From NCBI GenBank assembly GCA_963782815.1, contig CAWALG010000030.1, positions 41,187 through 105,186 of the forward strand: a stretch of DNA of 64,000 nt, in the 5' to 3' direction. This DNA is from an uncultured Acidobacteriota bacterium. GTDB lineage: Bacteria > Acidobacteriota > Thermoanaerobaculia > UBA5066 > Gp7-AA6. The position numbers and the translations under genes are program-made. Below, piece by piece: positions 2,800 through 64,000 of this stretch; position 1 is the first letter of the stretch; every line of letters begins with the position of its first letter. A model generated the notes under the pieces. That model did not search any database and was not told the DNA's origin. It saw only the letters and a list, made by a program, of their open reading frames with translations.

Positions 2800-5524
2800 T
2801 CAATGCGCCGCCGGCGCCCAGTTCTGGACGAGGGTGGCCGGAGTCGAGGCCTTCTCGGCGACGATCGTGTTGATCAGGAACCGCTGGCCGTCGGGGAAGA
2901 CGTCGTACTGGGGGATGTTGGTGCGGCGCGAAGAGGTGCGGAAGAGAGGCTGCGGCGTGCCGGTCTCGAAGCCGCCGTCCGTCCGGACGGGGACAGCCAT
3001 GAGCTGGCGGCCGAGGTCCAGGTAGAAGAGCTCCTTGCCGTCCGCTCTCCACTTCGGCTGCCGGCCGCCCGCCGTCGAGACCTGGCGCCGGCCTCCCGGG
3101 CCCGGAAACGCCGCGACGTAAATCTCGGGCCGGCCCGTCTCGGAGGAGAGGTACGCGATCCACCGTCCGTCCGGGGAGAACGCGGTGTCGCGCTCGCTCG
3201 ACGGCGTCGAGAGGAGGAGCTTCAGCGTCTGCGTCTCGACCTCGAGCAGCCACATGTCGTCCTCGGTCTTCGCATTGGATCCGTTGAAGGCGATGAACCG
3301 TCCGTCCGGCGACCAGTCCGTGAGGAACCTGGAGCGGGGGAGGGCGAAGTCCTGCGTCTGCTCGAACGCGGAGCGGGGCCGGCCGGCTCGGCGGCCACGA
3401 TCGGCCGCTCCTCTTCCGAGGAGCCCAGGATTTTCTGATAGATGGACCAGAGGCCCTTGCGGTACGACGCGTACGCGATCCTCTTGCCGTCGCGGGAGAA
3501 GACCGGCGTGTAATCCTCGCCCGGATCGAAGCTGATCCGGGCCGGCGCCTCCCGGCCGGCGGCGTCGAAGATCCAGATGTCGCGGTTGGTGCTGACCGGA
3601 TCGACGACCTCGGCCGCGACGCGCCGGCCATCGGGCGAGATTCGCGGCGTCCAGTAGTTCCCCGTCGGCGCGGCGTTGCCGAGCGGCTTTCCCGAACGGT
3701 CGAACACCGTCAGCTGCGAGAGGCCGATCGTTCCACCCTCCGCGTAGGCGAGGAGCCCTTCCTGGGACACGGAGAAGATCCCGGTCGAGGCGTCCGCGAG
3801 GTACTGAACGTGCCGCGCGACGACCTGCGGGTCCCCCGGAGCTCCAGCTTTTCGGCGTCGAAGGGGTGGGCGAGGAGATCTCCATTCCAGACGTAGAGGA
3901 GATATCCCGGCGGCGCGTACACCGTCCTCGATGCGGCGCGCAGAAGCAGCTTGCGGTCCTTCGATCCGAGCTCCTGCACGTAGAGCTCGCTCTCGGAGCG
4001 GCGCGTGGACGGATCCACGCGCTGCACGACGTAGAGGAAGTGCTTCCCGTCCGGGAGGAACTCCGGATACTGGTGCACGCTCTCGCCGCGGCTCGCGTCG
4101 ATCGCCGTGATCGCGACGCGCTCGCGGTCCTGCGGCGACACGCGGTAGATCGGGGAGAGCAGCGACGGCGAGTAGAGGATGATGCCCTCCCGGTTCCAGG
4201 TCGCGCCGCGGCCCGGGCCGATCGCGGCGATGGATTCGACGGCGCCGCCGTTGGCCGGAATCCTGGAGAGTCCCGTCAGCATCGTCGCGAACCCGATCCA
4301 GCGCCCATCGGGGGACCAGAACGGGTTTCTCGCTCCGTCGGTCCCGGCGAGAAGCTGCGCCGCGGGCTGGTCGAGCGCGCGCGCCGCGAGGACGACGTGG
4401 CCTTCGATGTCGTGGACCGGAAAGACGACGCGGGTCCCGTCGGGCGAGAGCGCGAGCGGTCCCGACAGCGGGTCGAGAAACCACCCGTCCGGCGCGACGA
4501 GCGAGGACACGATCCGGCGAGCCGGCGCGGCCTGCGGGCGCCGGCCGAAATGGACCTGCTGTCCGATCAGAAAGGCCGCGATCGCGGCTGCCGCGATCCA
4601 GAGCCAGGAGAGCCGGCCGCTTCGCTCCTTCGCGGCGGGCCGGGCGGGGATTCCGGCGCGTCCGGCGGGGTCTCCAGCTCGATTCGAGCGTCGGCGATGT
4701 CGTGGAAGCGCCGGTCCCGGTCGCGCTCGAGGCAGCGCCGGAGGACCTTCCGGACGTTGGCGGGAGTTCTGCGGGCAGCGCGGTCCAGTCCGGATCGGTC
4801 TTCAGGACCGCCGCGAGCGTGTCGGAGACGGTCTCTCCCTCGAAGGCGCGGCGTCCCGGTCAGCATCTCGTAGAGCAGCGCGCCGAAAGCCCAGATGTCG
4901 GCGCGCTTGTCCACGGGCTTGCCGCGCGCCTGCTCCGGGCTCATGTAGGCGGCCGTGCCGAGGATCATCCCCGCCGCGGTCGCCCGGCCCGTCATCGTCG
5001 GTGAGCTGCGTCAGTTGCGGCGTGCTGCCCGACGTCGGGTCCGTTTCGAAGACCTTCGCCAGCCCGAAGTCGAGGATCTTGACCCTGCCGTCGTGCGCGA
5101 CGATGACGTTGGCGGGCTTCAGGTCCCGGTGGATGATCCCGCGCTCGTGCGCCGCCTCCAGCGCCTCGGCGATCTGGCGCGCGATCGGAAGCGCTTCCTC
5201 GATCGGGATCGCCCCGCGCGCGATCCGCGCGTCCAGCCCCTCGCCTTCGACGAGCTCCATGACCAGGATGTGACGCCCGTCCACGGCCTCGAAGGAGTGG
5301 ACGGCCGCGATGCCGGGGTGATTCAAGGCGGCGAGCGCCTTCGCCTCGCGCTCGAAACGCGCGATCCGGTCCCGGTCCTCGAAGAACTCCTCGGGCAGGA
5401 CCTTGATCGCCACGGTCCGGTCGAGGCGCCCGTCCCGCGCCTTCCACACTTCTCCCATTCCTCCCGCTCCGATGGGAGAGAGGACCTCGTAGGGGCCGAG
5501 GCGCGAACCGGCTGTGAGAGTCAA
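2800..5524 (-). CDS. Ser/Thr protein kinase fused to PD40/TolB-type beta-propeller (at least 5 apparent frameshifts)
   Basis: [44 protein letters not shown] and DFG are in ORF 4802..5524. AAYMSPEQ is in ORF 4567..4995. A TM segment follows, then PD40 repeats ([54 protein letters not shown]) spread over ORFs 3710..4510, 3222..4484 and 2800..3885. Confidence 0.85.
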
Positions 5525-5663
5525 GCTGTCTCAGAATACCGCGACGCGGCGGGACCGGCTCGGCCTGCGGGTCCGGGGTCACTCAAGGGCAGTCACGACG
5601 CAGAGCTTGCCCGGTACACCCTCGCCCACACCTCCCGCGAGCCCGATGCTAAGATCGCGGCCA

Positions 5664-6293
5664 ATGGCCATCGAATTCGTTCAGAACTACACCGATCTCT
5701 CGACCGACAAGGGGTATCAGTTCAAGTTCTTCTGCGACAAGTGCGGCAACGGGTACATGTCTTCCTTCCGGGCGTCCGCCATCGGGATCGCCTCGTCGGC
5801 GGCGCAGGTGGCGGGCAGTCTCTTCGGCGGCGTCTTCGGAAAGATCGGCTCCAGCTCCTACGAGGTCCAGCGCGCGATCGGCGGCCCCGCGCACGACAAG
5901 GCCCTCGAAGCCGCCGTCACGGAGATGAAGCCGAAGTTCAAGCAGTGCAGCCGGTGCGGCCGATGGGTGTGCGGGGAGGTCTGCTGGAACCACGAGCAGA
6001 ATCTCTGCGAGCAGTGCGCGCCCAACCTCGACGAGGCGATCGCCTCGGCGCAGGCCGAGGCGGCGAAGGATCAGGCCTTCGAGAAAGCGAAGAGCGTTGA
6101 TTGGCTGAAGGACCGCGACATCTCCCGCAAGCAGGCGGCGACGTGCCCCGCCTGCGGAGCGCACACGCAAGGCGGGAAGTTCTGCCCCTCCTGCGGCGCC
6201 AATCTCTCGCCCGCCGTCAACTGCGGCAAGTGCGGGACGAAGATCGAGGGAGCCCCGAAGTTCTGTCCCGAGTGCGGCAACAAGCTCGGCTGA
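5664..6293 (+). CDS. zinc-ribbon domain protein
   Basis: An in-frame ATG at 5664 within ORF 5514..6293 gives MAIEFVQNYTDLSTDKGYQFKFFCDKCGNGY. There are multiple CxxC pairs (CDKCG, CSRCG, CEQC, CPACG, CPSCG, CGKCG, CPECG). TAAGAT lies about 8 nt upstream of the ATG. Confidence 0.75.
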   Translation: MAIEFVQNYTDLSTDKGYQFKFFCDKCGNGYMSSFRASAIGIASSAAQVAGSLFGGVFGKIGSSSYEVQRAIGGPAHDKALEAAVTEMKPKFKQCSRCGRWVCGEVCWNHEQNLCEQCAPNLDEAIASAQAEAAKDQAFEKAKSVDWLKDRDISRKQAATCPACGAHTQGGKFCPSCGANLSPAVNCGKCGTKIEGAPKFCPECGNKLG

Positions 6294-6331
6294 TCCTGAC
6301 CACGCGCCCGCCCCTCGTCGTCCTCCACGCG

Positions 6332-6830
6332 CCGTAGGGGCGGGCCTCGCGCCCGCCCGCCTCTTCCGAATGCGCCGAGGCGTCGAGACTGCCGCGGACT
6401 ACACCACGAGCCTTACACCTGGCGATCGTGCCTTCCGCGCCGTAGGGGCGGGCCTTGCGCCCGCCCGCCTCTTCCGGATACGCCGAGGCGTCGAGACTGC
6501 CGCGGACTACACCATGAGCCTTACACCTGGCGATCGTGCCTTCCGCGCCGTAGGGGCGGGCCTTGCGCCCGCCCGCCTCTTCAGGATGCGCCGAGGCGTC
6601 GAGACTGCCGCGGACTACACCATGAGCCTTACACCTGGCGATCGTGCCTTCGGCGCCGTAGGGGCGGGCCTTGCGCCCGCCCGCCTCTTCCGGGTGCGCC
6701 GAGGCGTCGAGACTGCCGCGGACTACACCATGAGCCTTACACCTGGCGATCGTGCCTTCGGCGCCGTAGGGGCGGGCCTTGCGCCCGCCCGCCTCTCTCA
6801 GGTGCGCCGAGATGTCGAGACCGGAGGAAC
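6332..6830. repeat. Tandem array A: 108-bp unit x about 4.6, each with hairpin gggcgggc-cttgc-gcccgccc
   Basis: Unit starts (ccgtagggg) are at 6332, 6440, 6548, 6656 and 6764, an exact 108-bp period. Units are near-identical. The last unit diverges after the hairpin. Confidence 0.95.
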
Positions 6831-6867
6831 CCGACGCGCCTCACTCCTTCCGATCGGCCCCCAAGAG

Positions 6868-7345
6868 CGGGACGTCGTGGAATGCTGGGCGTTATCGCGA
6901 TGTCGTCCGTCTCGCACGAATGGCTTGATGGCGAGAGGCGGGCGGCCGCAAGGGCCGCCCCTACGGCACGAGGGGAGTCGAGGAGAGTGGTGGCGTGATC
7001 ACGATGTTGTCCGTCTCGCACGAATGGCTTGATGGCGAGAGGCGGGCGGCCGCAAGGGCCGCCCCTACGGCACGGGGGGCACGTCGAGGAGAGTGGTGGC
7101 GTGATCACGATGTTGTCCGTCTCGCACGAATGGCTTGATGGCGAGAGGCGGGCGGCCGCAAGGGCCGCCCCTACGGCACGAGGGGCACGTCGAGGAGAGT
7201 GGTGGCGTGATCACGATGTTGTCCGTCTCGCACGAATGGCTCGATGGCGAGAGGCGGGCGGCCGCAAGGGCCGCCCCTACGGCACGAGGGGCACGTCGAG
7301 GGATGCGGTGGCGCCCTTGTCAACTCGTCCGTCTCGCATTGAATC
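6868..7345. repeat. Tandem array B: about 106-bp unit x about 4.5, opposite polarity to array A, hairpin gggcggcc-gcaag-ggccgccc
   Basis: The landmark gtccgtctcgca occurs at 6905, 7009, 7115, 7221 and 7327 (spacings 104/106/106/106). A degenerate partial unit starts near 6868. The last partial unit abuts the stop of the BNR gene (7344). Confidence 0.95.
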
Positions 7346-10300
7346 AGGGGTCCTCGTCCGGTTCGTCCGGCTCCTCCCGGCCCGGCGCCTCGGGCTCCTT
7401 CACGGTCATGATCTGGACGTAGCCCTTCCCCTTCATCGCGTCGTTGAACGCGGGGACGGCCTTGCCGTAGAAGTCGTCGAACTCCTTGCGCGCGGAGGCG
7501 AGCTGCCCGGAGAGGAGCGCATAGACGTCGAGCTCCGGCTGCGTCGGGGGATAGTCGGAGTTGCCCGAGACGTCGCTGCCGCTGACACCGGACTCGGCCT
7601 GGAGCCAGATGAGCTTCAAGTAGAGCTCGAGCGGGCCGCGGAACGACTTCTGGTCTCCTTCCGCGAGCGTGGGCTGGAGGAGCTTGTCCTCGACGGCGCG
7701 GGCCTTCTTCTCGAGCTCGTCGGCCTGCTCGAAGACGGGCTTGTCGGCCTTGCCCGCCTTGAGCATCCTGCGAAAGTCCTCGAGCTGTTTGCGCGTCCAC
7801 TCGATCTCGTTGATCATCCGGGCGGCCGCGCTGATGTCGTCGTAGATCCCGCGCGAGAAGTTCGCCGAGGCCGCGACGTCGGCGTCGCTTCGGCCCGAGC
7901 GGGGATCCTTCAAGACGGTGAGCGGCCGCGTTCCGATCTCCTTCCCTTCGACCGTGAGCTTGACCGTGTAAGTGCCCGGGGCGACGAGGGGGCCCTTCTT
8001 GGGAACGGTGATGCCGTAATAGAAGACGCCGCGATGGTCCTTGCCGACGAAACGCTTCTCCTCCCAGATGTGCGGATTGCCGGCGGGCGTGGTCCGCATG
8101 CGGACGTCCACCGTCTGTTCGTAGGCGAGGTCCCAGGCGACGCGGTTCAACCCCGCCTTGTTCGTCCCCTTGATCGTCCGGATCTTCTTCCCGGCGGAAT
8201 CCCAGATCGTGATCTCGATCGGGTTCTTCTTCGGCGCGGCGTTCTCGGCCTCGGCGTCGCCCTCCTTCTCGGGAACCTTCAGCGGATCCTTCAGCCAGTA
8301 GTTGATCGCGGCGCCGTAGGGCGGGTTCTGTCCTTGCGCCGCTCCCGCGGGGACGAGGTTGGGCCGCGAGGTGGAGCGGAACCGGTAGGCCGGCCGCGGA
8401 TCGAAGAGATGCGAGGCGGAGGCGCGGACGGCGTCCGTCAACTGCTCGAGCGGAGTCACGTCGTCCAGGATGTAGAAGCCGCGCCCGTAGGTCCCGACGA
8501 CGAGGTCGTGGAAATGCTCCTGGATCGTCATCCAGTAGACCGGAGCGTGCGGGAGCTTGTCTTGCAGCGGCTCCCAGCGCCCGCCGTCGTCGAAGGAGAC
8601 GTAGAGCGCGTTCTCGGTCCCGGCAAAGAGAAGCCCCTTGCGGAAGGGGTCCTCGCGCACGACATGCGCATACGAGAGCGGGCTCTTCGGAATGTTGGAG
8701 GCGATCGCCTTCCAGCTCTTCCCGTAGTCCGCCGTCTTGAAGAGAAAGGGATCGCGGTTGTCCACCTGGTGCAGGTCCACGGCGATGTAGCACGTCCCCG
8801 CGTCGAAGCGGGAGGGCTCGACGCTGCCCACCGTGCCCCTGGGGGGCAGGCCGGGGATTCCGGGTGTGACGTTGGACCAGTGGGCGCCGCCGTCCCTGGT
8901 GACCTGGACCACGCCGTCGTTGGTGCCGGCCCAGATGACGCCCTTCTCGAGCGGCGACTCGGCGATCGAGTAGACGACGCCGGCGTACTCGACGGAGAGG
9001 TTGTCCACGGTCAATCCGCCGGAGTCGCCCATCATGCTCTTGTCGTTGGTCGTCAGGTCCGGGCTGATCGCCTTCCAGGTCTGCCCGCCGTCGGAGGTCG
9101 CGTAGACGTACTGGCTCCCCACGTACACGGTGTTGTGGTCGTGCGGCGAGATCGCGATCGGGAACGTCCAGTTCATGCGGAGCTTGATCTCTCCCGCGTT
9201 GGCGCCCATCGTCCGCTCCGGCCACGGGCTGACGGTGCGCGCCATCCCGGTCTTCGCGTCGAAGCGCTCGACGACCCCGGCGTAGCAGCCGCCCCAGACG
9301 ATGTCGGGATCCACCGGGTCGGGAGTCGCCCAGCCGGTCTCGCAGCCGGCCGTCGAGGTCCATTGCGCCGGGGAGATCCCGCCGGCTCCGGGGACGACGC
9401 TCGGGCCGCGCATCGAGCCGTCGTCCTGCATCTGGCCGTACACGAAGTACGGGATCCGGTTGTCGGTCGTGACGTGGTACATCTGGCCGATCGGCAGCCG
9501 CATCGACGACCACTGCCGGCCGCGCGTCGTCGAGATCAGGACGCCGAGGTCGTTGCCGATCATCATGCGGCGCGGGTCCTTCGGGTCCGCCCACATGTCG
9601 TGGTTGTCGCCGCCCCAGCGGATCTGCTCCGCGGTCTCGCCGCCGTCGTAAGTCGCTCCCATCATGTTGGAGGGGAAATAGACCTCGTTGGCGTTGTCGG
9701 GCATGACGAGCATCCGCGTGTAGTAGTGGGGGCGCTCGTTCAAGAGCCGGCTGTGGTTGACGAGCTTCCACTTTTCCCCGCCGTCGTCGGAGCGCCAGAG
9801 CGACCCGCGCTGCCCCGTCTCGATGAGCGCGTAGACGCGCTGCGAGTCGCTCTGAGCCACGGCGACGGCGATCTTGCCGAGCGGAGGCTCCGGCAGGCCG
9901 TGTCCCGTGATCCGCTTCCAACGTCGTCCCGCCGTCGCGCGAAACGAAGACGCCGCTCCCGGGCCCTCCGCTCTTGCGCCCCCACGTCTTGATGTCGATC
10001 TGCCACGCGCCGGCGAAGAGGGTGCGCGGATTGTTCGGGTCCATCGCCAGGTCGGACACGCCCGTGTTCGCGTCCACGAAGAGGACTCGCTCCCAGGACT
10101 TGCCGCCGTCCATCGTGCGGTAGACGCCACGCTCCTGCTGCGGGCCGTAGCCGGTCCCGATCGCCGCCGCGAAGACGATGTCCGGGTTGCGCGGGTCGAT
10201 CGCGATCCGGGGAATCCGTCCTGTCTTCTCCAGGCCCATGTGCTTCCAGCTCTTCCCGGCGTCGGTGGACTTGTAGATCCCGTTTCCGAGCGAGACGTTC

Positions 10301-14444: not shown

Positions 14445-17025
14445 CTACTTCACGCCTTCCACGAGGAAGAGGTGGGAGAGCTGGTATCCGAACGAGTAGG
14501 CGTAGCTTTTCCCGTCGTCCGAAAGGGCGAAGGTCCCGATCCGCAGGGCGCCGGCGGTCTCGGCGCCGCCGAACGTGACCAACGGCTCCCTCCGGCCCGT
14601 CGCGAGGTCGAGCTTCTCGCCATGCACGGGTATCTGGGGGCCTCGGAACACGATGATCGAGCGGCCGTCTGAGCCCCACCGGAGGGCCTGGTCCTCGGGT
14701 GTCGTTCCGGGCACGGTCCTTGGCGCTCCGCCTCCCGACGGGTAGATCTCGAGACTCCCGGCGCTGCCCCGGACGAGGATCGAGCCTCCGTCGGGCGAGA
14801 CGAAGCCGCGGCTCGTCCCCTCCGGCGTCACGGGACGCGGCTTGCCCCCCGAGATCTCCTGGACGTAGCACCGGACGGCGCGTCCGGTCTCGGCGCCGCA
14901 CACGAGAAGGCGGCGGCCGTCCGGGAAGAACTGCGCCGCCTCGTAGCTGACGATGCCGCCGGAATCGAGCCGGCGCTTCTCTCCCGCGCCCGTGGGGTAG
15001 AGAACGAGCTGAGCGGGCGACGCCGGCACGATGGTCAGGGCCCACTTCCCGTCCGGCGACAGGTCCGCGCCGGCCCCCTCGCCCAGCCGCACGACGGCGG
15101 ACCCGTCCGTGCCGCGCAGGCACACCGCGTAGTTGGCGCCGACGGACCCGCTCTCCTCGGTGAAGAGGAGCGTCTTTCCGTCGGCGGAGAGCGCGTTCGG
15201 ATCGGAGAGGTCGAGCCAGGAGAGATCTCGCTCGGCTTGTTCTTCGCGCGCCTTGCCGAACATCTTCCGGAAGAGGTCGTCCCGGGTGGCGAGCCACCGG
15301 CCGTCGGGACGGATGTCCTGGATCGTCGAGCCCTCCGGCGCTCTCGATCGCGGTCCGCCGCCGGCCCGAGAGCGTGACGGCGTAGACCGCGAAGTTGTTG
15401 TAGGCCCTGCCGGCGGAGAAGAGCACTTCCTCGCCGCTCGGCGACCAGGCAAGCCCCTCCTCTCCCCAGTACCCCTCGGAGAGCACGGTCCGCTTGCCCG
15501 AGAGGTCCACGACGGCGACGAGGCCGCGGTCGTCGTACTTCAACGGGTGCTCGAAGAACGCGATGCGGTCCCCCTTCGGCGAGAATCGCAGGTCGCTCAT
15601 GTACCCGCTCGCTTCGCAGAGGACCTTCCCGACGGGAAACTCCAGCCTGTCCTTCCCGCCGACGTCTCGGATGATGGCCAGGTCCGCGCCGTCGGGCGAC
15701 CAGTCGGCTTCGCGGACACCCTCCAGGATCTCTCGCGGGGCCGCCCCCTCGACCGGCATCCGCGCGAGCGTGCCGTTGAAGAGATTGTGCGCGACGTAGC
15801 GGGCGCGCGTCAGGACGGCAAGCTCGCCCCTCGAAGAGATCGAAAGCAGATGGATGTCGGAGAGTCCGCGGGCGTTGGCCCCCGGAAAGTCGGGACGCAG
15901 CGAGAAGATCTCGGGAACGCTCCCCTGGATCGCCGCGCTGAAGACGATCTTTCCGTCCGGCGCGAAGCGCGCCTTGAAGATCGGCTGCTGCCGGAACGTC
16001 AGCTGCGAGAAGGAGGGCCCGGCCGGCGCCCTGCTCCTCTCTATTCGACGTCCGGCGATGTAGGCCGCCGCGACGGCCGCCGCGAGGACCGCCACCGCCA
16101 CTCCGACGAGAACGCCGCGCCGCGAAGGGGCGGGTTTCGCGGCGACGGACCGAATCCCGGGCGCCGAGAGCCCGGACAATGACTCCAGATCGAAGGCGAG
16201 GTCGCGCGCGGATTGGAACCGCTGCTCGGGGTTCTTCTCGAGGCAGTGGCGCAGGACCCTGTCGAGGCCCGGCGGGAGATTCTGGTTGGTCAGCGAGAGA
16301 TCGGGCGGATCCTCCCTCAGGATCGCGGACATCGTGTCCGCGGCGGAGTCTCCGTGGAACGCGCGGTTGCCCGAGAGCATCTCGTAGAGGATCGCGCCGA
16401 AGGAGAAGAGGTCGCTGCGGGCGTCGGCCGGCCTTCCGCGCACCTGCTCCGGCGCCATGTAGCCGATCGTTCCGAGGACGACTCCCGGCTCGGTCCCGGC
16501 CGTCGCGGTCGGCAGATTCGTCTTCTCGCGCGCGCCCTCTTCGGTGTGCGTCAGCTTCGCGAGGCCGAAGTCGAGGATCTTCAACCGCCCGTCCTTCGTG
16601 ACGAAGAGGTTCTCCGGCTTCAGGTCGCGGTGGACGATCCCCTTCTCGTGCGCCGCGGCAAGCCCGTGCGCCATCTGGAGCGCGTAGTCGATCGCCTTGC
16701 GCGGCGAGAGCCTTCCGCCGGCGAGGGCCGCGCGCAGCGTCTCACCTTCCAGAAGCTCGCTGACGACGTACGGCGCCCCTTCATGAGAGCCGATGTCGTA
16801 GACCGCCGTGATGTTGGGATGATTGAGCAGCCCCGCCGCCTTCGCCTCCTGCTCGAACCGCCGCAGCCGGTCCGCGTCGTTGGAGAAGGAGGCCGGCAAA
16901 ACCTTAATCGCCACCTCGCGAGAGAGCCGAGAGTCCCGTGCGCGATACACCTCACCCATCCCTCCGGCGCCGAGGGAAGAGAGGACCTCATATGGACCAA
17001 GCTTGCTGCCGGCCGGGATCGTCAT
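14445..17025 (-). CDS. Ser/Thr protein kinase fused to beta-propeller (apparent frameshift near 15350)
   Basis: [47 protein letters not shown] and APEQ are in ORF 14116..17025. The C-terminal propeller part, ending ...HLFLVEGVK, is in ORF 14445..15452. Confidence 0.85.
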
Positions 17026-17072: not shown

Positions 17073-19641
17073 TCATCTTGCTCCCTCGACCACGAAGAGA
17101 TGAGAGATCTCCTGCCAATAGTTATAGACATAGACGCTCGGATCATCCGCGAGGGAAATGGAGAAAATGCCGAGAAGCCCCGCCGCATCCTTCGGGGCGA
17201 GCTTCTCCATCAGTTCGCGGCGCCCGGTCTGGAGGTCGAAACGCTCGACCTGGGCCGGGACCTCGGCCCTGCGTCGGATCCAGAGCGATCGGCCGTCGGG
17301 ACTCCAGCGGATGACGAGGTCTTCCCCAGTCAGATCGAGGGGGACCGGCGGCCCGCCGGCGAGCGGATAGAGGGCCCATCGCCCGGCGTTCCGCGCCAGA
17401 ACGAGGCGGCCGTCGGGCGACGGGAGGCCGAAGCTCGCCCCTTCCGGTGTGACCGGGCGGGACGCGCCCCCGGACGCCGGTTGCTCGTAACACCGTGCGG
17501 CGCGCCCGGGCTCGTGCCCGCAGACGAGCAATCTCTGTCCATCGGGGAACCACGCCGCAGATTCATAACTTTCCAGATTGCCCCGCTCCAATTGACGCGC
17601 CTCGCCCGGGCCCGTCGGATAGAGGCGCAGGTAGGGTGGGGAAGCCGGAACCCAGGCAACCGCCCGGGAGCCGTCCGGCGAAAGATCCGCCGCTCTGCCT
17701 TCGCCGAGCCGGACCACCGGCGACCCGTCGGTCTTCCGAATGCAGACCATGTAGTTCGGGCCCGCCGACTCACTCTCGTCGGTGAAGAGCAGCGTCTTTC
17801 CGTCGCGGGAGAGGATCGGAGCCAGAGAGTTGCCGAGCCAGGAGAGGTCCCGCTCCGTGTTCTCGCCCGGCGCCTTCACCAGGAAGCCCGTCCTCAGATC
17901 GTCGCGAGTGACGAGCCAGCGTCCGTCGCGCGAAACATCCTGGATCGTCACTCCGCCGGCGCTCTCGAGCACGACACGCTTCCGGCCCGAGAGCGTCACT
18001 GCCTGGACCTGGAAGCTGGAATAGTTCTCCCCGCCCGAGAAAAGAACTTCTTCTCCGTTTGGCGCCCAGGCCAGGCCCTCTTCGCTTCCGTAGTCGCCGG
18101 AAAGGACGGTTTTCTTTCCCGCGCGGTCGACGACGGCCACGGTCCCCCGGTCGTCGTAGCGGATCGGGTGGTCGAAGAAGGCGATCCGATCCCCCCTGGG
18201 CGAGACGCGAACGTCGCTGACATAACCGCCGGTCTGGTAGAGAACCGTTCCGATCGGGAACTCCAGGCGATCTTTTCCCTCGACTTCCCGGATGATCGCG
18301 ATACTCGAGCCGTCGGGGGACCAGTCCGCCTCGCGGACGTTCTCGACAACCTCGCGCGGCGCTCCGCCTCCCAGAGCCATTCGCGCGAGCGTGCCCGTGA
18401 AGAACCGATGGTTGATCCACTTCGCCCGCGTGAGAAGCAGAAGCTCTCCCTGTGACGAAACGGACAACAGATGCGTCTGGGCAAGTCCCAGGGGCCGCGA
18501 CTCCGGGTATTCGGGCCGGATGGAGAAGAGCTCCGGAACGTTTCGCTCGAGGGCCGAGCTGTAGACGATCGTCTTGCCGTCCGGAGCGAAGCGCGCGACG
18601 AAGATGATCTGTGGCTGGAAGGTCTTTCGGGCGAACGTGACCGGCGTCCGTTCCTTCGGGGCATGGGAGAGTCGGCCGGCGAAGTAGGCAACCGCCAGCG
18701 CGGCGAGAGCGAGCGCCGCGAACAGGACTCCGCGCGCCGCACCGGCCTTGCGCGCCCCGGCCGCCGGCATCGGCCGCTCCGGAGACGAAATGCCCGACAG
18801 CTCCCCGAGATCGAAAGCGAGGTCGTGCGCCGAGTGGAAGCGCTGCTCGGGGCTCTTCTCGAGGCAGTGGCGGACGATCCGGTCGAGTCCCGGCGAGATG
18901 TTCTGGTTGGTGAGCGAGAGATCCGGCGGATCCTCCCGCAGGATCGCCGACATCGTCTCGGCCGCCGAGTCGGCGTGGAAGGCGCGCCGGCCCGAGAGCA
19001 TCTCGTAGAGGATCGCGCCGAAGGAAAAGATGTCGGAACGGGCGTCGGCGGGCTTGCCCTTCACCTGCTCAGGCGACATGTAGCCCAGAGTGCCGAGCAC
19101 GACGCCCGGCTCGGTGCCTGCGGTCGCCGTCGGCAGATTCGTGACCTGGCTTCCCTCCTCCGTGCGCGTCAGCTTGGCCAGGCCGAAGTCGAGGATCTTG
19201 ATCCGGCCGTCCCTCGTGACGAAGAGGTTCTCGGGCTTCAGGTCGCGGTGGACGATCCCCTTCTCGTGCGCGGCGGCCAGGCCCTGCGCGATCTGCCGGG
19301 CGCAGTCGAGCGCCTTGCGGAGAGAGAAGCGCCCGCCGGCGAGCGTCGAGCGCAACGTCTCGCCTTCGAGCAGCTCCTGCACGACGTAGGGCGCGCCGTC
19401 ATGAGTCCCGATGTCGTAAACGGCCGTGATGTTGGGATGATTCAGGAGTCCCGCCGCCTTGGCCTCCTGCTCGAACCGCCGCAGTCTTTCCGCGTCCGCC
19501 GAGAGGGAGGCCGGCAGAACCTTGATTGCGACCTCGCGTGCCGAGTCGCGAATCCCGCGCCCGATACACCTCTCCCATCCCTCCCGCGCCGAGCGGCGAC
19601 ACGATCTCGTAGGGACCCAGACGGGTTCCGGCGCTGATCAC
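17073..19641 (-). CDS. Ser/Thr protein kinase fused to beta-propeller (2 apparent frameshifts near 19545 and 19390)
   Basis: GTG at 19641 gives [33 protein letters not shown] (ORF 19399..19641). The kinase core and propeller are in ORF 17073..19382 ([15 protein letters not shown]; ends ...HLFVVEGAR). It is a close paralog of 14445..17025. Confidence 0.85.
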
Positions 19642-23577: not shown

Positions 23578-23653
23578 TGTGGGGTAGTTGAATTGGTACA
23601 ACGTCCGGCTGTTAACCGGAAGGTTGGTGGTTCGATTCCACCCCCCACAGCCA
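23578..23653 (+). tRNA. tRNA-Asn (anticodon GTT), CCA encoded
   Basis: Manual cloverleaf: acceptor TGTGGGG/CCCCACA, D arm GTTG-AATTGGTA-CAAC, anticodon arm TCCGG-CTGTTAA-CCGGA, variable AGGTT, T arm GGTGG-TTCGATT-CCACC, discriminator G, CCA. Length 76 nt. Confidence 0.95.
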
Positions 23654-23817
23654 ACCGTCGCTCCGCGCTCCGCAAGGGATCTGCGCCCTGCGGGCGCACC
23701 GGCGAGCGGCTCGGCCGGATGCGGCCTCGACCGCTCGCCTGATCCCTTGCTCCGCGCTTCGCTCCCGCGGCGGGAGGCTCCTCCCTCGCCTGCTCGGGAG
23801 ACTCCTCCCGCCGCGAG
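23654..23817 (+). repeat. R module copy 1 (structured GC-rich dispersed repeat) directly after tRNA-Asn
   Basis: Hairpins are gcgccc-tgc-gggcgc and ggcgagcgg...ggccg-gatg-cggcc...ccgctcgcc (23701-23739). Homologous to 32897-33096 and 36064-36210, and partly to 37327-37400. Confidence 0.85.
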
Positions 23818-27544: not shown

Positions 27545-27679
27545 CCATGTCTGTCACACTTCTGCCACACCGATGACCCAGAGACCTGACGAGAGCGAGG
27601 AGAAAACGCCGTACTGACGAGGGTTTCCGGATCTCGCTGCTTCAGAGGACCGGGGGTTCGATTCCACCCCCCACAGCCA
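27545..27679 (+). repeat. X module copy 1 (27545-27654) plus 25-nt copy of tRNA-Asn 3' end (27655-27679)
   Basis: ggttcgattccaccccccacagcca is identical to tRNA positions 23629-23653. The preceding roughly 110 nt are homologous to 32766-32863. Confidence 0.85.
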
Positions 27680-32765: not shown

Positions 32766-32896
32766 CCATCCGTCACACTTCCGTCACACCGCTGGCCCGA
32801 GAGGCTTGACGAGAGTGAGACAACGCCGTGCTGACAACGGTTTTCGGATCTCGCCGTTCTAAGAGGTTGGTGGTTCGATTCCACCCCCCACAGCCA
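32766..32896 (+). repeat. X module copy 2 (32766-32863) plus 33-nt copy of tRNA-Asn 3' end (32864-32896)
   Basis: aggttggtggttcgattccaccccccacagcca is identical to the variable loop, T arm and acceptor 3' strand with CCA of the tRNA at 23621-23653. Confidence 0.9.
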
Positions 32897-33096
32897 CACG
32901 TCGCTAAGCGCTCTGCGAGGCATATGCGCCTTGTGGCGCACCGGCGAGCGACTCGGCCGGATGCGGCCTCGATCGCTCGCCTGATCCCTCGCTCCGCTCT
33001 TCGCTCCCGCGGCGCGAGGCTCCTCCCTTCGGTTACTCGGGAGACTCCTCGCGCCGCGAGCAACGGCGGCATCCCGGTGGTCTATTGGATGTGTCC
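32897..33096 (+). repeat. R module copy 2
   Basis: cacgtcgctaagcgc...gcgcc-ttgt-ggcgc...ggcgagcga...ggccg-gatg-cggcc...tcgctcgcc (32943-32981)...gggagactcctcgcgccgcgag...ccggtggtctattggatgtgtcc. It has the same order and orientation as copy 1. Confidence 0.85.
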
Positions 33097-33374: not shown

Positions 33375-35963
33375 GTGTCCCTGACGGCCGGTTCTTGGCT
33401 CGGGCCCTACGAGATCCTGTCGCCGCTCGGGGCCGGCGGGATGGGCGAGGTCTGGCGGGCCCGCGACACGCGGCTTTCCGCGAGGTGGCGGTCAAGGTCC
33501 TGCCGGCGGCGCTTTCGTCGGACGCGGAGCGGCTCCGGCGGTTCGAGAAGGAAGCGCGCGCGGCGTCCTCTCTGAACCATCCGGCGATCGTCACGATTTA
33601 CGAGATCGGAAAGGCGGAAGGGGTCTCCTACCTGGCCATGGAGCTCGTCGACGGGACGACGCTTCGCGAGGCGCTCGCCGCGGGGCCGCTCCCGGTCCGC
33701 CGGCTCCTTTCGATTTCCGCGCAGATCGCCGAGGGACTGGCCAAGGCGCACGGGGCCGGGATCGTGCACCGCGACCTGAAGCCCGAGAACGTGATGGTGA
33801 CGAAGGATGGCTTCGTCAAGATCCTCGACTTCGGCCTGGCCAAGGTCGTTGCCCCGGAGCCGGAGGCCGGGCAAGCGACCAGGGCGGCGACGGTTTCCGC
33901 GGGCACCGAACCGGGCGTCGTGATGGGGACGGTCGGCTACATGTCGCCGGAGCAGGCGCGCGGCGATCCCTGGACTTTCGCTCCGACCAGTTCGCGCTCG
34001 GCTCGATGCTCTACGAGATGGCGGTGGGCAGGCGCGCTTTTGCGGGCGGGACGAGGCCGGAGGTCATGGCGGCGATCATCCGCGAGGAGCCGGAGCCCAT
34101 CGCGACCGCGAATCCGAAGGTTCCGGCGCCGCTCCGATGGGTCATCGAGCGCTGCCTCGCCAAGGACCGGAGCGAACGCTACGCCTCCACCGAGGACCTC
34201 GCCCGCGACCTGCGGGGCGCCGAGGCGCATCTGTCGGAGCTCTCGGGAGGGGCCGCGGGAATGGGCGCTTCCGAAGCGACACGCCTGGCGCCGCGGAGGA
34301 AGCGGTCTGCTCGGAGGTCGCGGCTGGCGTTCTCGCGGGCCTCGTGTTCGGCGCAATGGGATTCTGGCTGGCCGCCGGCCGATCTCCGCATCCCTCCCAC
34401 GTTCCCTCCTTCCAGCGCGTGACGTTTCAGCGGGGAAACGTGCTCAATGCCCGGTTTGCCCCCGACGGACAGACGATTCTCTACAGCGCCTCCTGGGAAG
34501 GCCGCCCGGCGGAGGTCTTCTCGACGCGGGTCGACGGCACGGAGTCCCGGCCGCTCGGGCTCGCGAAGGCCGATCTGGCGGCTGTGTCAGAAGCGGCGAG
34601 CTGCTCATCCTTCTCAAGAGCTCCGACTTGCAGACACCCGGAGGCGTTTCCACGCTGGCGAGGGTCTCCCTTTCCGGAGGCGCTCCGCGCGAGATCGCGC
34701 AGAGCGTGCACATGGCCGAGTGGCTGCGTGGAGGCGGGATCGTCGTGCAACGGCATGTCGGCTTGGACCATGACGTGCTGGAGCTGCCGCTCGGGACGCG
34801 CCGCCTCGAATACAACGGGTCCGCTCCGAGGGTTTCGCGAGACGGCCGTTTCATTGCGATCGCCCGAGGAACGGTTCAAGGCGGCGAGGGCTCGATGTTC
34901 TCGATGAGGCAGGCAAGGTGGTCTGGAGCATAAAGGCGGACGTGGGCCTCGCAGCTCGCCTGGCATCCGAACGGCGAGCTGTGGTTCTCGCGGGATGCCG
35001 GCCAGGAACCTGGCCTTTTCGCCGTCGCGCGCGGAGGCCCATTCGCTCGATCTTCAGGGCGAACGGCTGGGTCCTGCACGACATAGCGCCCGACGGGCGG
35101 CTGCTCATGGAACGCGCAATCAGCAGGAACAGCATCCGGGTCCGAGTCAATGAGCCGAGGGAGCGCGAGCTCTCATGGCTCGACGGCTCGGAGCTCGTTG
35201 GGATGTCGAGCGACCTGAAGGCGCTGCTCTTTTCCGAGACGAACGAAGCCGGGAGCCGCGCCGGAGGCGTCTATCGCAGAGGGACGGACGGCTCCCCGGC
35301 GGTTCGGCTCTCGGACGGGAGAGCCCTCGCGTTTTCGGAGGACGGCCGCTGGGCGCTTGTCCGCGAATCGGGACGCCGGCCCGGCACACTCTCGTGCCGA
35401 CCGGAGCGGGCGAGCCCGTGCCGCTCGACTTCGGCGGCGACCGCCTGCTGTCGGCCGTCTTCCTGCCGGGACCGGAGCCGCGGCTTCTGGCCACGGTGGG
35501 CGAGAGCCCCGACCGAGGCCATGTCGAGCTCGTGACGCCGGCCGGGCGCCGCCCGCTCCCGATCTCGCCGGGCTTTACCCCCGGCGACGTGGCGGTCTCG
35601 CCGGAAGGAAGCGCGATCGCGTACGGAGCGGCCTACGGAGCGGGAGCGCGCGAGGTGGCGCTGTGTCAACTCGAGAAGCCGTCCTGCCGCAAGCTTCCCC
35701 TGCCGGCGGAGGCGACACCAATCCAATGGAGCGCCGACGGGAAATATCTGTATCTGCGCGACTATGGCGAGATCCCGGCCCACGTCATCCGCTACGAAAT
35801 CGCCACCGGCGCCCAGACGAACTGGCTGACACTCGGGCCTGACGATCCCACCTCTATTATCGTCGTCGGCCGCATCCTGCTGTCTCGCGACGGCCGCAGC
35901 TACGCCTTCAATCCCCTCGGAGTCCAGGACTCGAGCCTCTTCGTCGTCGAAGGCTTGCATTGA
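33375..35963 (+). CDS. Ser/Thr protein kinase fused to beta-propeller (several apparent frameshifts)
   Basis: [34 protein letters not shown] is ORF 33375..33575. [16 protein letters not shown] and SPEQ are in ORF 33395..34933. [17 protein letters not shown]... is in 34006..34422. Propeller parts are in 34137..34907 and 34918..35535. The C-terminus ...[11 protein letters not shown] is in 35175..35963. Confidence 0.85.
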
Positions 35964-36063: not shown

Positions 36064-36210
36064 CCGTCGCTCAGCGCTTGCGCGTGGTCTGCGCCCTGCG
36101 GGCGCACCGGCGGGCGGCTCGCGCGGATGCGCGCTCGACCTCTCGCCTGACACCGCGCAAGCACTCCGCTCCCGTGCCGATGGCATGCCGGTGGTCCATT
36201 GGATGTGTCG
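36064..36210 (+). repeat. R module copy 3
   Basis: ccgtcgctcagcgc...gcgccc-tgc-gggcgc...ggcgggcgg...gcgcg-gatg-cgcgc...cctctcgcc (36109-36147)...ccggtggtccattggatgtgtcg. The inner stem changed GGCCG/CGGCC to GCGCG/CGCGC while the loop gatg is kept. Confidence 0.85.
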
Positions 36211-37464: not shown

Positions 37465-38454
37465 ATGGCGAGGCCTGTTCGGGCGGGTACGACTCGGGCG
37501 CTCACGATGCCGCTCCTCTTGGGGGTCAGCCTGCTCGTCGCGGCGGGGTTTACGCTCGGCAAGGTCAGGGTGGATCAGCAGGGGCAGCTCGGTTCCGTTG
37601 GTGGGTACACCTGGAGTCTCAGTCTCTGGTTCCTGCCGATCGCGGTCCTGCTGGTCTGGTTCATCCGGCGGCGCGACCAGGTCATACAGCGCCCGGCATT
37701 CTGGACGACACTCATCGCCTTGATCGCGTCCGGGTTCGCGCTCGACTACTTCTTCGCGCATACCTTCTTCCTCTTCCCCAACGCCGCGGCGACGCTGCTC
37801 CCGCCCGCGCCGGCGCGGGGCGGCCCGGTCCCTTCGGAGGAGTACCTGTTCTATGTCGGCGGGTTTCTCTTCGTCCTCCTCTTTTACATCTGGTGTGACG
37901 AAGACTTTCTGCTTCTCTACAATGTGCCCGACTATCGGGAGGCCTGGGCGAAGACCGGTCGCTCGCGCGTTGCCCAGTTCGATCCGCTCTCGCTGACCGG
38001 GGCGGCCGTCCTGATCGCCGGGGCGTGGATCTACAAGGCCGAAATCGCCCGGGGCCCGTTCCGCGGCGGCTTCCCGGGGTATTTCGCATATCTGACGCTC
38101 CTGGGAGTCGCCCCCGCCGTCGGCTTTCTGAAGGCCACGAGACAGTTCATCAACTGGCGGGCCTTCGCCCTCACGTTCCAGGTCGTGGTGGCGGTTTCCC
38201 TGCTCTGGGAGGCGACGCTGGCAGCGCCCCTGGGCTGGTGGCGCTATCAGCCCGGGGAGATGACCGGCATCGTGGTCGCAGCCTGGTACGACCTTCCGCT
38301 CGAAGCCGTCATCATCTGGCTCGCCGTGACGTTCACGACCGTGATCGTCTACGAAACCGTCAAAGTCTGGCAGGCCAGCGGAGGCAGGATGCCCGCGTTC
38401 ATCCCGCGCAGAGTCAGAGCTTCAGTTCGGAAGTGGTATCACCTGCCCGACTAA
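37465..38454 (+). CDS. lycopene-cyclase-domain membrane protein (fused two-domain type)
   Basis: Intact polytopic ORF with two PxEE/PLE-type motifs characteristic of CrtYc/Yd-like domains (VPSEEYLFYVGG and DLPLEAVIIWLA). The start could also be the Met of MPLLLGV (37507). Confidence 0.6.
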   Translation: MARPVRAGTTRALTMPLLLGVSLLVAAGFTLGKVRVDQQGQLGSVGGYTWSLSLWFLPIAVLLVWFIRRRDQVIQRPAFWTTLIALIASGFALDYFFAHTFFLFPNAAATLLPPAPARGGPVPSEEYLFYVGGFLFVLLFYIWCDEDFLLLYNVPDYREAWAKTGRSRVAQFDPLSLTGAAVLIAGAWIYKAEIARGPFRGGFPGYFAYLTLLGVAPAVGFLKATRQFINWRAFALTFQVVVAVSLLWEATLAAPLGWWRYQPGEMTGIVVAAWYDLPLEAVIIWLAVTFTTVIVYETVKVWQASGGRMPAFIPRRVRASVRKWYHLPD

Positions 38455-62249: not shown

Positions 62250-62549
62250 ATGTCGGCCCAGCAAGTTTTCAAGGCGCTCTCGGATCCAAGCCGGCGCCGG
62301 ATTCTCAAGATCCTGCAGGACGGGTCTCGAACCGCCGGGGAGCTGTCCGACGGCTTCGACATGACCAAGGGCACGCTCTCGCACCACTTCAACGTGCTGA
62401 AGACCGCCGGCCTCGTCCGGTGCGAGAGGCGGGGCCAGCAGATCGTCTACTCGCTCAATACCTCGGTGCTCGAGGATGCGGCCTCGATGCTGCTCGATCT
62501 CTTCGGCCGCAAAGAAACGGAGGCGCGTGATGAAACTCCATCGCGGTGA
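62250..62549 (+). CDS. ArsR/SmtB-family (SdpR-like) transcriptional repressor
   Basis: MSAQQVFKALSDPSRRRILKILQDGSRTAGELSDGFDMTKGTLSHHFNVLKTAGLV is a winged HTH of ArsR type. No metal-binding Cys motif is present. Confidence 0.85.
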   Translation: MSAQQVFKALSDPSRRRILKILQDGSRTAGELSDGFDMTKGTLSHHFNVLKTAGLVRCERRGQQIVYSLNTSVLEDAASMLLDLFGRKETEARDETPSR

Positions 62550-63194
62550 AATCTTCGCACTCGCTCTCGTGCTCGTGGCCTTCGTCGTGACGGGGGCGCT
62601 GTACTCCCGGCTTCCGGAGAGGATCCCGAGCCACTGGAACATCCGCGGCGAAGTGGACTCCTACAGCTCCAAGCCCTTCGGGCCGTTCGTCCTGCCGGCG
62701 GTCATGGCGGGGCTCGCTCTCATCTTCCTCGCCCTGCCCGCGGTCTCGCCCCGAGGCTTCCGCTTCGATCGTTTCCGCGGCGTCTGGGGAGTCCTCCAGT
62801 CCGCGATTCTCGCTCTTCTCCTCCTCGTTCACGCGCTCGTCCTCCTCTCCGCGATGGGGAAGGCCGGTGGACATGACGCGGGGAATCGAGGCCGGCATCG
62901 GCCTCCTTCTCGCCGTCGTCGGAAATTTCTTCGGCAAGCTCACGCGAAACTTCTTCGTGGGCATCCGAACGCCCTGGACGCTCGCCTCGGAAGAAGTCTG
63001 GATGCGGACCCACCGGCTGGCCGGCAAGCTCTTCGTCCTCGCCGGCCTCGCGATGTTCGCCCTCGCGCTCGCGGGCGCGGGGCCGATTTCGATGATGATC
63101 GTCGTCGGCGCGGCCAGCGCTCGTGTCGGTGGTCGCGTCTTACGTGTTCTACCGGCGGATCGAGGGCTTCAAGGAGGAGATCCCCGGGCAATAA
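62530..63194 (+). CDS. DUF1648 + SdpI-family membrane protein (apparent frameshifts near 62870 and 63115)
   Basis: MKLHRGEIFALALVLVAFVVTGALYSRLPERIPSHWNIRGEVD is DUF1648-like. After a frame change, ...GIEAGIGLLLAVVGNFFGKLTRNFFVGIRTPWTLASEEVWMRTHRLAGKLF is the SdpI signature. The tail ...LVSVVASYVFYRRIEGFKEEIPGQ* ends at 63194. Confidence 0.75.
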
Positions 63195-63216
63195 CCCCGC
63201 GCTCTTCCCGGAGCCT

Positions 63217-63310
63217 TCGTCGTGCCCCTCGTGCCGTAGGGGCGGCGCTTGCGGCCGCCCGCCTCTCCCGGTTACGACGCCGCGGGCGAGACGGAGCGAT
63301 CGCCTCGTTA
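63217..63310 (+). repeat. solitary copy of the array-B-type hairpin unit
   Basis: cgtgcccctcgtgccgtaggggcggcgcttgcggccgcccgcctctc...gcgagacgga... matches the reverse complement of the 6868-7345 unit (cgtgcccctcgtgccgtaggggcggcccttgcggccgcccgcctctc...gcgagacgga...). Confidence 0.8.
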
Positions 63311-63371
63311 CCTCACCCTACACACGACGCGCACTCCGCACCGAGCCCTCGCGGTAGCACGACCGGGGCCG

Positions 63372-64000
63372 TCAGGCGGTTTCCGTCCAGAACTGTTCGA
63401 GCAGGTTCTGGCAGACGCGGCGACGGTACTCGGCAGTCGAGCGGATGTCGTCGATCGGCTGGATCTCGCCGGCGAGGTCTCGCGCGCCTCTGCGACCGAG
63501 CCGCCGGCCGACAGGACGGCTTCCGTCCGAGGCAGGCGGATGACGGTCGGAGCCACGCTGCCGAGCGCGATGCGCGGCCGGGGGGCGCGGACCGCCGCCA
63601 TGACGACCTTGGAAATCGCCTGCGCCGCGCGCGTGCCGACCTTCCGGAACCACTGGCGGCCGGGGACGGGCGGGACCTCGACGGCGACGATCAGCTCGTC
63701 CGGCCGCGCCACGCTCTTTCGGTATCCCGTATAGAAGGAATTGAACGGGACCCGCCGCGTCCCTCCCGCGCTCCTCAAGACGAGAATCGCCTCGGCGGCT
63801 GCCAGGACGGGCAGCGTGTCGCCCGCGGGCGAAGCGTTGGCGATGTTGCCTCCGAGCGTCCCGCGATTCTGGATCTGCGACGCCCCCGACCTCCCGCGAC
63901 GCCGCGGCGAGGATCGGCAGCCGCTTGCGAACGAGCGCAGATCGGATCATCCGCGTGTACGTCGCGAGCGCGCCGATCGAGAGCGCGCCGTGCCGCATCT
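63372..64000 (-). CDS. FAD-binding subunit of a xanthine-dehydrogenase/CO-dehydrogenase-family molybdoenzyme (CoxM/XdhB-like), 5' end outside window, apparent frameshifts near 63890 and 63480
   Basis: ASQIQNRGTLGGNIANASPAGDTLPVLAAAEAILVL is the FAD_binding_5 signature. ...RKVGTRAAQAISKVVMA... follows. The C-terminus DIRSTAEYRRRVCQNLLEQFWTETA* is the CO_deh_flav_C-type ending. Confidence 0.8.
   Translation of the reverse strand, partial: MRHGALSIGALATYTRMIRSALVRKRLPILAAASREVGGVADPESRDARRQHRQRFARGRHAARPGSRRGDSRLEERGRDAAGPVQFLLYGIPKERGAAGRADRRRRGPARPRPPVVPEGRHARGAGDFQGRHGGGPRPPAAHRARQRGSDRHPPASDGSRPVGRRLGRRGARDLAGEIQPIDDIRSTAEYRRRVCQNLLEQFWTETA

Follow-up and report, generated by a model that had tools for sequence, protein, structure and literature searches.

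The stretch of DNA analysed here (64,000 nt, referred to as the window) belongs to contig CAWALG010000030.1 of an uncultured bacterium of the Thermoanaerobaculia (Acidobacteriota). The gap between two convergent genes, from the stop of a zinc-ribbon gene at 6293 to the stop of a BNR gene at 7344, contains two opposed tandem arrays of a hairpin-bearing unit, and a single further unit is located near 63.2 kb. The units very probably belong to the GTAG-tagged repetitive extragenic palindromes (REPs), which are defined by a conserved unpaired GTAG directly 5′ of a palindrome with a 6–13-bp stem (Di Nocera et al., 2013, PMC3733652; PMC8266576). The features of the window that concern the units are as follows.

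5664..6293, plus strand: double zinc-ribbon gene (from the translation); its stop codon is 41 nt 5′ of the first GTAG
6312..6743, plus strand: outer units A1–A4 of arm A; GTAG at 6334, 6442, 6550 and 6658; exact 108-bp period
6744..6866, plus strand: inner unit A5 of arm A; GTAG at 6766; tail diverged; ends with its own CGATCG-GCCCC box at the cluster centre
6867..6986, minus strand: inner unit B4 of arm B; GTAG at 6964; stem subtype GGGCGGCC/GGCCGCCC
6987..7302, minus strand: units B3, B2 and B1 of arm B; GTAG at 7068, 7174 and 7280; periods 104, 106 and 106
7303..7343, minus strand: partial outermost unit of arm B, a GAGAC half and box without the hairpin; abuts the BNR stop codon
7344..10130, minus strand: BNR/Sortilin-VPS10-type gene (from the translation), convergent with the zinc-ribbon gene
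63214..63335, plus strand: single dispersed unit; GTAG at 63236; one mismatch in the stem (GGGCGGCG/GGCCGCCC); distance from stem to GAGAC 24 nt; inverted-repeat pairs I10–I13 and I18

Both the gap and the two opposed arrays had been reported in a preliminary description made from the letters of the window, and both were confirmed. Tandem Repeats Finder placed array A at 6328–6821 (period 108, 4.6 copies, 96% matches) and array B at 6888–7313 (period 106, 4.0 copies, 96% matches). A 25-nt pattern comprising GTAG and the hairpin was found 10 times in the window, compared with 0.00 expected from 100 shuffles: five times on the plus strand of the gap, four times on its minus strand, and at 63236 on the plus strand, a copy that the preliminary description had not linked to the arrays. 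An unpaired GTAG stands immediately 5′ of the hairpin in all 10 copies, and the hairpin has an 8-bp stem and a 5-nt loop. The units of the gap number five on the plus strand, with the exact 108-bp period and count proposed earlier, and four and a half on the minus strand at spacings of 104–106 bp. Five landmarks had been assigned to array B; only four of them are hairpins, and the fifth, at 7327, falls in the real partial unit. Every unit had also been said to carry the same hairpin with an unchanged loop. The stem difference between the arrays is as described (GGGCGGGC/GCCCGCCC in A and GGGCGGCC/GGCCGCCC in B, a change from G-C to C-G at stem position 7), but the loop of unit A1 is CTCGC, not CTTGC.

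Units A1–A4 consist of a CGTGCC-type box, GTAG, the 8-bp stem strand GGGCGGGC, the 5-nt loop, GCCCGCCC, GCC-TCT, 19 nt, CGAGAC, and a tail. They are 95–98% identical to one another, whereas a relative (L162) has, at the orthologous site, an outer A unit to which they show 75–78% identity. Unit A5 is the older copy of arm A; it shares 82% identity with the inner A unit of L162 and only 75–77% with its own neighbours. In arm B, units B1–B3 share 95–98% identity, and B4 is 89–90% identical to them and 84–87% identical to the B units of L162. The central doublet A5+B4 is predicted to fold as single-stranded DNA into a long imperfect hairpin (z = −4.4). The two arms are 65–74% identical overall. 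The earlier statement that they are not a recent inverted duplication was right. The gap around the unit at 63236 is convergent by the reading of open reading frames (ORFs; stop at 63194, end of a minus-strand ORF at 63372), and the coding-frame test called neither flank. The decamer GCGCCCGCCC at 6302–6311, just 5′ of unit A1, corresponds to the 3′ strand of an A-type stem and may be left over from an additional degraded unit beside the zinc-ribbon stop codon.

Near-identical tandem repeats of 106–108 bp are difficult to assemble, and the arrays or their copy numbers might be an assembly artefact. This is very unlikely in our judgement, because point changes distinguish the units within each array and the same architecture is found in independent assemblies of the orthologous site (L154 and L162) and at many other loci. 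Moreover, short-read assemblers usually collapse tandem repeats and do not invent them. An ORF of 220 aa (6370–7032) is open through array A, where 108 bp corresponds to 36 codons, but the probability that this array encodes a repeat protein is close to nil. The periods of array B (104–106) are not multiples of three, orthologous sites have different numbers of copies, and the units are located 3′ of both flanking stop codons; spurious ORFs are common at such G+C content, and the conserved parts are the hairpin and spaced DNA motifs, not codons. A CRISPR array was also rejected, since the “spacers” are 95–98% identical between units and the arrays are opposed.

When arm A and the 63.2-kb copy were aligned with arm B in reverse complement, they were seen to share a framework of a CGTGCC-type box, GTAG, the 8-bp stem with its 5-nt loop, GCC-yCT, about 19 variable bases, and CGAGAC. 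The acidobacterial unit is approximately 106–108 nt long; its stem consists of G and C only, GAGAC follows the stem after approximately 23 nt, and the tail closes with the following ACGA-CGTGCC box. A metagenome scan for this extended module, with a pattern that required GAGAC, yielded 76 soil stretches. A profile was then built from 144 units of these stretches and the window, selected by a filter that also required GAGAC. Its conserved parts are the box, GTAG, the hairpin, GCC-yCT, a GCC patch, cGAGAC, and the ACGA-CGTGCC box opening the next unit, with a conserved CT 3–5 nt 3′ of the stem. The box and the ACGA motif were in no search pattern. The preliminary observation that the differences within array A cluster just after the hairpin was also correct. 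In 21 neighbouring unit pairs from many loci, positions 34–35 after the G of GTAG were the most variable (13 of 103 differences), and two further zones of the unit were only slightly below them. The variable spot after the CT was considered as a joining scar and rejected as evidence; it is real, but it barely exceeds the two other zones.

The hairpin itself is widespread. A scan of 185,579 species genomes, in which four inner stem positions were left free on each side while the head, outer stem, and loop were fixed, detected the GTAG-hairpin in at least 118 stretches of genomes that represent 8 or more phyla. The matches listed include Hymenobacter, Acidobacteriota, Anaerolineae and Chloroflexia, Clostridia, Planctomycetota, Verrucomicrobia, Chlorobi, and Myxococcota. 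Among these listed matches the free stem positions were fully Watson–Crick paired in 124 of 138, 16 stem variants occurred, and inverted doublets were frequent. Head-to-tail arrays of the GTAG-hairpin with other periods were observed in other phyla (L047 61–292; L034; L095; L098 ~2780–2930 and 7280–7315; L014 2750–2816). Examples are Planctomycetota HKST-UBA89 with a period of ~102 and the CGAGAC motif, a metagenome-assembled genome (MAG) of Bacteroidales with a period of 57, and a Clostridia MAG with a period of 39. Related MAGs carry several loci each, e.g. L023, L063, L113, and L204 in MFD04944.bin.1.105, and the 64-kb window has two.

Within the acidobacterial units, 98.8% of the stem cells are paired and 60 cells have double changes, values that none of 500 shuffles reached, and controls slid along the unit gave 49–56%. 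Three stem pairs covary within this family. This pattern argues that the hairpin is kept by selection for structure. The preliminary description had inferred such selection from a compensatory pair between arrays A and B, and in that respect it was right; the pair is not, however, a local event, because GGGC/GCCC and GGCC/GGCC are common subtypes that pair as heterodimers (39 of 49 clusters), a known habit of GTAG REPs (PMC3733652). RNAalifold on 116 units found no helix beyond the hairpin, and complementarities noticed by eye around GAGAC were discarded as they are not consistent across units. The RNA fold of a single unit was not significant (z = −1.4), and an Rfam scan over 5800–7900 returned no match in the arrays at E ≤ 1. 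The proposed small-RNA locus is not borne out by these results.

The architecture of the clusters was surveyed in 81 non-redundant examples. The inverted doublet is the commonest pattern (+− in 28, ++− in 8, +−− in 6, +++−− in 3, and similar arrangements). Clusters with both orientations run plus and then minus, with the GTAG ends outward, and the sole exception is a +−+ cluster (L193). No divergent or alternating +−+− cluster was present among the 81. The suggestion of an element like REPs or bacterial interspersed mosaic elements (BIMEs) was correct. The alternation of BIMEs is absent. The unit period is 103–111 nt across clusters, and the 5+4 cluster of the window is the largest seen. Within an arm, adjacent units have the same stem subtype in 42 cases versus 6. 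Between the arms, the subtype is different in 39 of 49 clusters versus 31.4 ± 3.2 expected (22 of 2,000 shuffles reach this value).

The enrichment of heterotypic arms recalls the Y/Z pairing of BIMEs, and conserved patches at fixed spacing without a helix, among them two motifs outside all search patterns, would suit a platform for host proteins like that of E. coli BIMEs (integration host factor, gyrase, DNA polymerase I), with the CGTGCC box, GAGAC, and ACGA as candidate sites. We regard this as decidedly unlikely. The motifs could equally be sites of cleavage or strand transfer by a REP-associated tyrosine transposase (RAYT), and the presence or absence of units among close relatives, described below, speaks against an essential structural role at the site.

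The genomic context is that expected of GTAG REPs. The 25 callable clusters comprise 17 in convergent, 7 in tandem, and 1 in divergent gaps, so that 24 of 25 follow the preference of GTAG REPs for convergent or unidirectional gaps, and none of 48 clusters is clearly inside a gene. The prevalence of convergent gaps (17 of 25) also suits another explanation, in which the units are mainly RNA 3′-end modules whose hairpins terminate or stabilise both convergent transcripts and whose arrays are retained for that function. Because the GTAG ends face outward, the arm next to each flanking gene is in sense orientation to that gene; the all-G+C 8-bp helix is very stable and is kept by compensatory changes; and REPs elsewhere are described as 3′ untranslated region elements (PMC3733652; bioRxiv 10.64898/2026.03.23.713779). 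Nevertheless, we consider this origin improbable. No hairpin at either locus of the window is followed by a T-tract: a search for T-tract terminators gave no site in 5500–8000 or in 62500–64000, and GCCTCT follows the hairpins. Locus L191, in which the array stands next to a RAYT gene, has a separate canonical terminator between the upstream gene and the array. These observations do not favour the bidirectional terminator that had been proposed. In addition, the hairpin is the sole consensus structure, the fold and Rfam results above were negative, and the same gene pair exists in a relative without any unit, the copy number at this one site ranging from 0 to 9. An effect on 3′ ends would fit the REP explanation if it were a secondary consequence, not the origin of the arrays.

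The search for RAYT genes, which the preliminary description had recommended, was decisive. A tblastn probe with an E. coli RAYT sequence gave one weak match, in L089 only. After removal of an in-frame REP doublet, this gene fragment matched the NCBIfam model of the REP-associated tyrosine transposase (E = 1e-16), far above IS200. Homologues of the L089 protein, used as probes, led to two loci of the acidobacterial unit family (L191 and L137). The order in L191 is three plus-strand units, a Y1 gene on the minus strand, and one minus-strand unit, with the GTAG ends outward. After frameshift repair, its protein scored 100 bits against NF047646 (cut-off 80, E = 1e-28), 37 bits against Pfam Y1_Tnp, and 25 bits against IS200. 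L137 is the same locus with four units versus three. The identical frameshift is located in a run of six A/T in both independent assemblies (L191 ~2745–2755 and L137 ~1235–1245) and may mean that the gene is a pseudogene, that both sequences share a sequencing error, or that the frameshift is programmed. The family of the L191 RAYT comprises 136 homologues, nearly all of them intact at 155 aa, with source names such as REP-associated tyrosine transposase [Thermoanaerobaculia bacterium] and transposase [Acidobacteriota bacterium]. Further loci reached through the RAYT protein have the following orders.

L203: (+)4 units, IS110-family gene, RAYT, (−)1 unit; GTAG outward
L204: (+)2 units, RAYT, (−)2 units; GTAG outward
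L205: RAYT, (−)1 unit; GTAG outward
L208: doublet, RAYT, (−)1 unit; GTAG outward

In five independent relatives (L191/L137, L203, L204, L205, and L208), RAYT is flanked by GTAG units, which is the REPtron arrangement. Several observations on these RAYT loci stand apart. The gene between the four-unit array and RAYT in L203 (1215–2210) encodes an IS110-family transposase (Pfam DEDD_Tnp_IS110, Transposase_20). REP-targeting insertion sequences are known from Pseudomonas (ISPpu9; PMC8450116), and by analogy the L203 insertion could represent the same habit. In Chloroflexi-type contigs the RAYT gene is found just downstream of ruvB. REP doublets (GTAGGGGC) also occur in frame within the Chloroflexi-type RAYT ORF, in a loop after the HUH motif, giving the peptide VGAPLAGA...RAGASPAPT (L089 3597–3664, L195 1229–1371, L199 3262–3332, L200 3172–3199, and L201 3139–3203). 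Such in-ORF doublets are present in approximately 11 of 120 RAYT homologues, and L195 has a 2+1 arrangement within the gene.

The history of the site was examined in relatives. L154 and L162 represent the orthologous locus, with 93–97% identity of the zinc-ribbon protein and 80–85% identity of the BNR C-terminus to the window, and they have two A-type and three B-type units compared with 5+4 in the window. The BNR gene most similar to that of the window is found in L209, which is located on a 4.46-Mb contig. At the nucleotide level the flanks of L209 match the window with 93% identity on the zinc-ribbon side and 91.5% on the BNR side, and the same convergent gene pair encloses a 278-nt gap without a GTAG unit. 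GTAG units were likewise not found at the site in L210 and L212. The presence of 0, 2+3, and 5+4 units at one site indicates that the cluster is gained, lost, and resized over short evolutionary scales. A1–A4 and B1–B3 are near-identical, and A1–A4 are distant from the outer A unit of L162; the lineage of the window has therefore recently amplified the outer unit of each arm. The gap of L209 (3631–3908) holds an unrelated inverted repeat, GTCATTCCGAGCGCAGCGAGGAATCTGCTCTC ... GAGAGCAGATCCTTCGCTGCGCTCAGGATGAC, and the convergent gap seems to collect varied palindromic elements.

Taken together, the locus of this soil acidobacterium is very likely a GTAG-tagged REP cluster, i.e. non-autonomous repeats dependent on a RAYT encoded elsewhere in the genome. 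The arrays are real but essentially an ordinary REP pile-up, in which the arm-by-arm amplification is unusual. The preliminary description had named an ordinary REP/MITE pile-up as an outcome that would speak against its reading; a REP pile-up is what was found. On this explanation the basic element is an inverted pair with outward GTAG ends (called an “HH dimer” by Di Nocera et al.; REPIN-like, after the inverted REP doublets of Pseudomonas), and its two arms usually belong to different stem subtypes. An ancestral cluster of roughly 2+3 units would have been established between the two convergent genes, and tandem duplication of the outer unit of each arm would then have led to 5+4.5 units in the window lineage. 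Other RAYTs bind and cleave their REPs on single-stranded DNA at CT or CA beside the hairpin (PMC8266576); by analogy, the cognate enzyme would bind GTAG and the hairpin on single-stranded DNA and cut at the conserved CT just 3′ of the stem (PMC8266576, PMC3333891). The arms may have grown because RAYT transferred strands from one unit to its neighbour, or because the 106-nt repeats slipped or recombined unequally. A run of very stable sense-orientation hairpins would then, as a by-product, stand at the end of both convergent transcripts, and these hairpins may protect the 3′ ends or hinder read-through in a secondary role.

Several points weigh against this assignment. A search of the 64-kb window with 240 RAYT homologues gave noise only, and the window match at 38154–38405 to the L089 probe is a membrane protein, not a transposase. 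The lack of a RAYT gene in the window fits a single-copy gene that would be located elsewhere in the source genome, of which the analysis covered the 64-kb window; the cognate RAYT genes were seen in relatives. The L191/L137 RAYT, the only one beside a long-unit array that was read closely, is frameshifted. The conservation of GAGAC is partly built in, as it was required by the metagenome pattern and by the unit filter, and its independent confirmation is confined to units from the unconstrained scan (L116, L039, L063, and L073) and units reached through the RAYT protein (L203, L204, and L205). Finally, known RAYT biochemistry does not account for the extra conserved motifs.

The ~106-nt unit could amount to more than a REP whose flanks are carried along passively: it could be a composite element, with the box, the CT, and the fixed-distance GAGAC as working sites, and RAYT itself would then add copies head-to-tail beside one already present, by a one-ended or “copy-next-door” strand transfer between boxes. 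We hold this to be rather unlikely. It would constitute a mode of REP propagation distinct from REPIN transposition, and it would account for the separate growth of the arms as well as for the similar head-to-tail GTAG arrays with CGAGAC in an unrelated phylum, Planctomycetota (L047).

On the assignment to GTAG REPs, the conspicuous 1-kb repeat block is explained as ordinary REP/RAYT biology, and there is no need to follow it up as a novel RNA or defence locus. GTAG-REP/RAYT systems are extended to Thermoanaerobaculia-type Acidobacteriota, a group for which our literature search found no description of REPs or RAYTs. The copy numbers of 0, 2+3, and 5+4 at one site, together with RAYT-proximal arrays of 3 or 4, provide a natural series for the formation of REP clusters, a question open since Bertels and Rainey (2011, PMC3116915).

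As for the neighbouring genes, homologues of the zinc-ribbon protein bear the name zinc ribbon domain-containing protein [Thermoanaerobaculia bacterium] and contain Pfam DZR/zinc-ribbon domains, and the L209 orthologue of the BNR gene matches Pfam BNR and Sortilin-Vps10. The real start of the BNR gene may be further upstream. A gene segment of several hundred bases is present in five diverged copies with 60–84% identity (~1527–2167, 4862–5513, 16160–17014, 18781–19633, and inverted at 33381–34040), one of them directly upstream of the zinc-ribbon gene; it represents a paralogous gene family in the neighbourhood. The 3′ end of a tRNA-Asn gene (23578–23653) recurs in two partial copies approximately 4 and 9 kb downstream of the gene (27600–27679 and 32817–32896), and a 63-nt repeat occurs three times nearby (23680–23742, 32922–32984, and 36088–36150). 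This arrangement looks like tandem integrated elements at a tRNA gene.

The closest known systems are the GTAG REPs and REPtrons (PMC3733652; Nunvar et al., 2010, PMC2817692; Ton-Hoang et al., 2012, PMC3333891). Di Nocera et al. (2013, PMC3733652) described GTAG REPs in 8 phyla, with stem subtypes related by complementary changes, a preference for GTAG-outward (HH) dimers that are often heterodimers, sites between convergent or unidirectional genes, REPs flanking RAYT genes, and large clusters formed by tandem reiteration with flanking DNA. The acidobacterial units resemble them in the GTAG 5′ of the stem, the complementary subtypes, the outward heterodimers, the convergent sites, the flanked RAYT, and clusters that arise by tandem reiteration along with flanking DNA. 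They differ in length and content, as the acidobacterial unit has ~106 nt and three extra motifs while the GTAG REPs are bare palindromes of 20–40 nt. Head-to-tail repeats, which are rare or absent in most genomes (PMC3733652), are the rule within each arm here. In cultured Acidobacteria, the same study found tyrosine transposases flanked by unrelated terminal inverted repeats (“TIRYTs”), not by GTAG REPs.

The REPINs of Pseudomonas (PMC3116915) are inverted doublets that can fold into a long hairpin as single-stranded DNA, depend on a single-copy RAYT, and form ordered, near-identical tandem copies, some of them beside RAYT, and the acidobacterial clusters probably resemble them in these respects; how these ordered clusters form was left unexplained by Bertels and Rainey. 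Their tandem unit is the whole doublet with its flanks, whereas here the arms are amplified separately as (+)n(−)m and never as (+−)n, and the long hairpin is imperfect because the arms are 65–74% alike outside the core. E. coli BIMEs (PMC8266576, PMC2817692) are likewise composite clusters of two subtypes in opposite orientation, with linkers and variable copy number. The orientation of BIMEs alternates along the cluster, in contrast to 0 of 81 in the acidobacterial family. The subterminal hairpins of IS200/IS605 (PMC8266576) are analogous in that a Y1 HUH enzyme recognises a single-stranded hairpin and a 5′ tetranucleotide guides cleavage, and a similar recognition may operate here. In the present case, however, the enzyme scores as RAYT over IS200, the repeats on the two sides of the RAYT gene are inverted relative to each other, and the majority of copies do not enclose a gene. 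From these systems the acidobacterial clusters differ in the long motif-bearing unit and the arm-by-arm amplification, and the host group is new.

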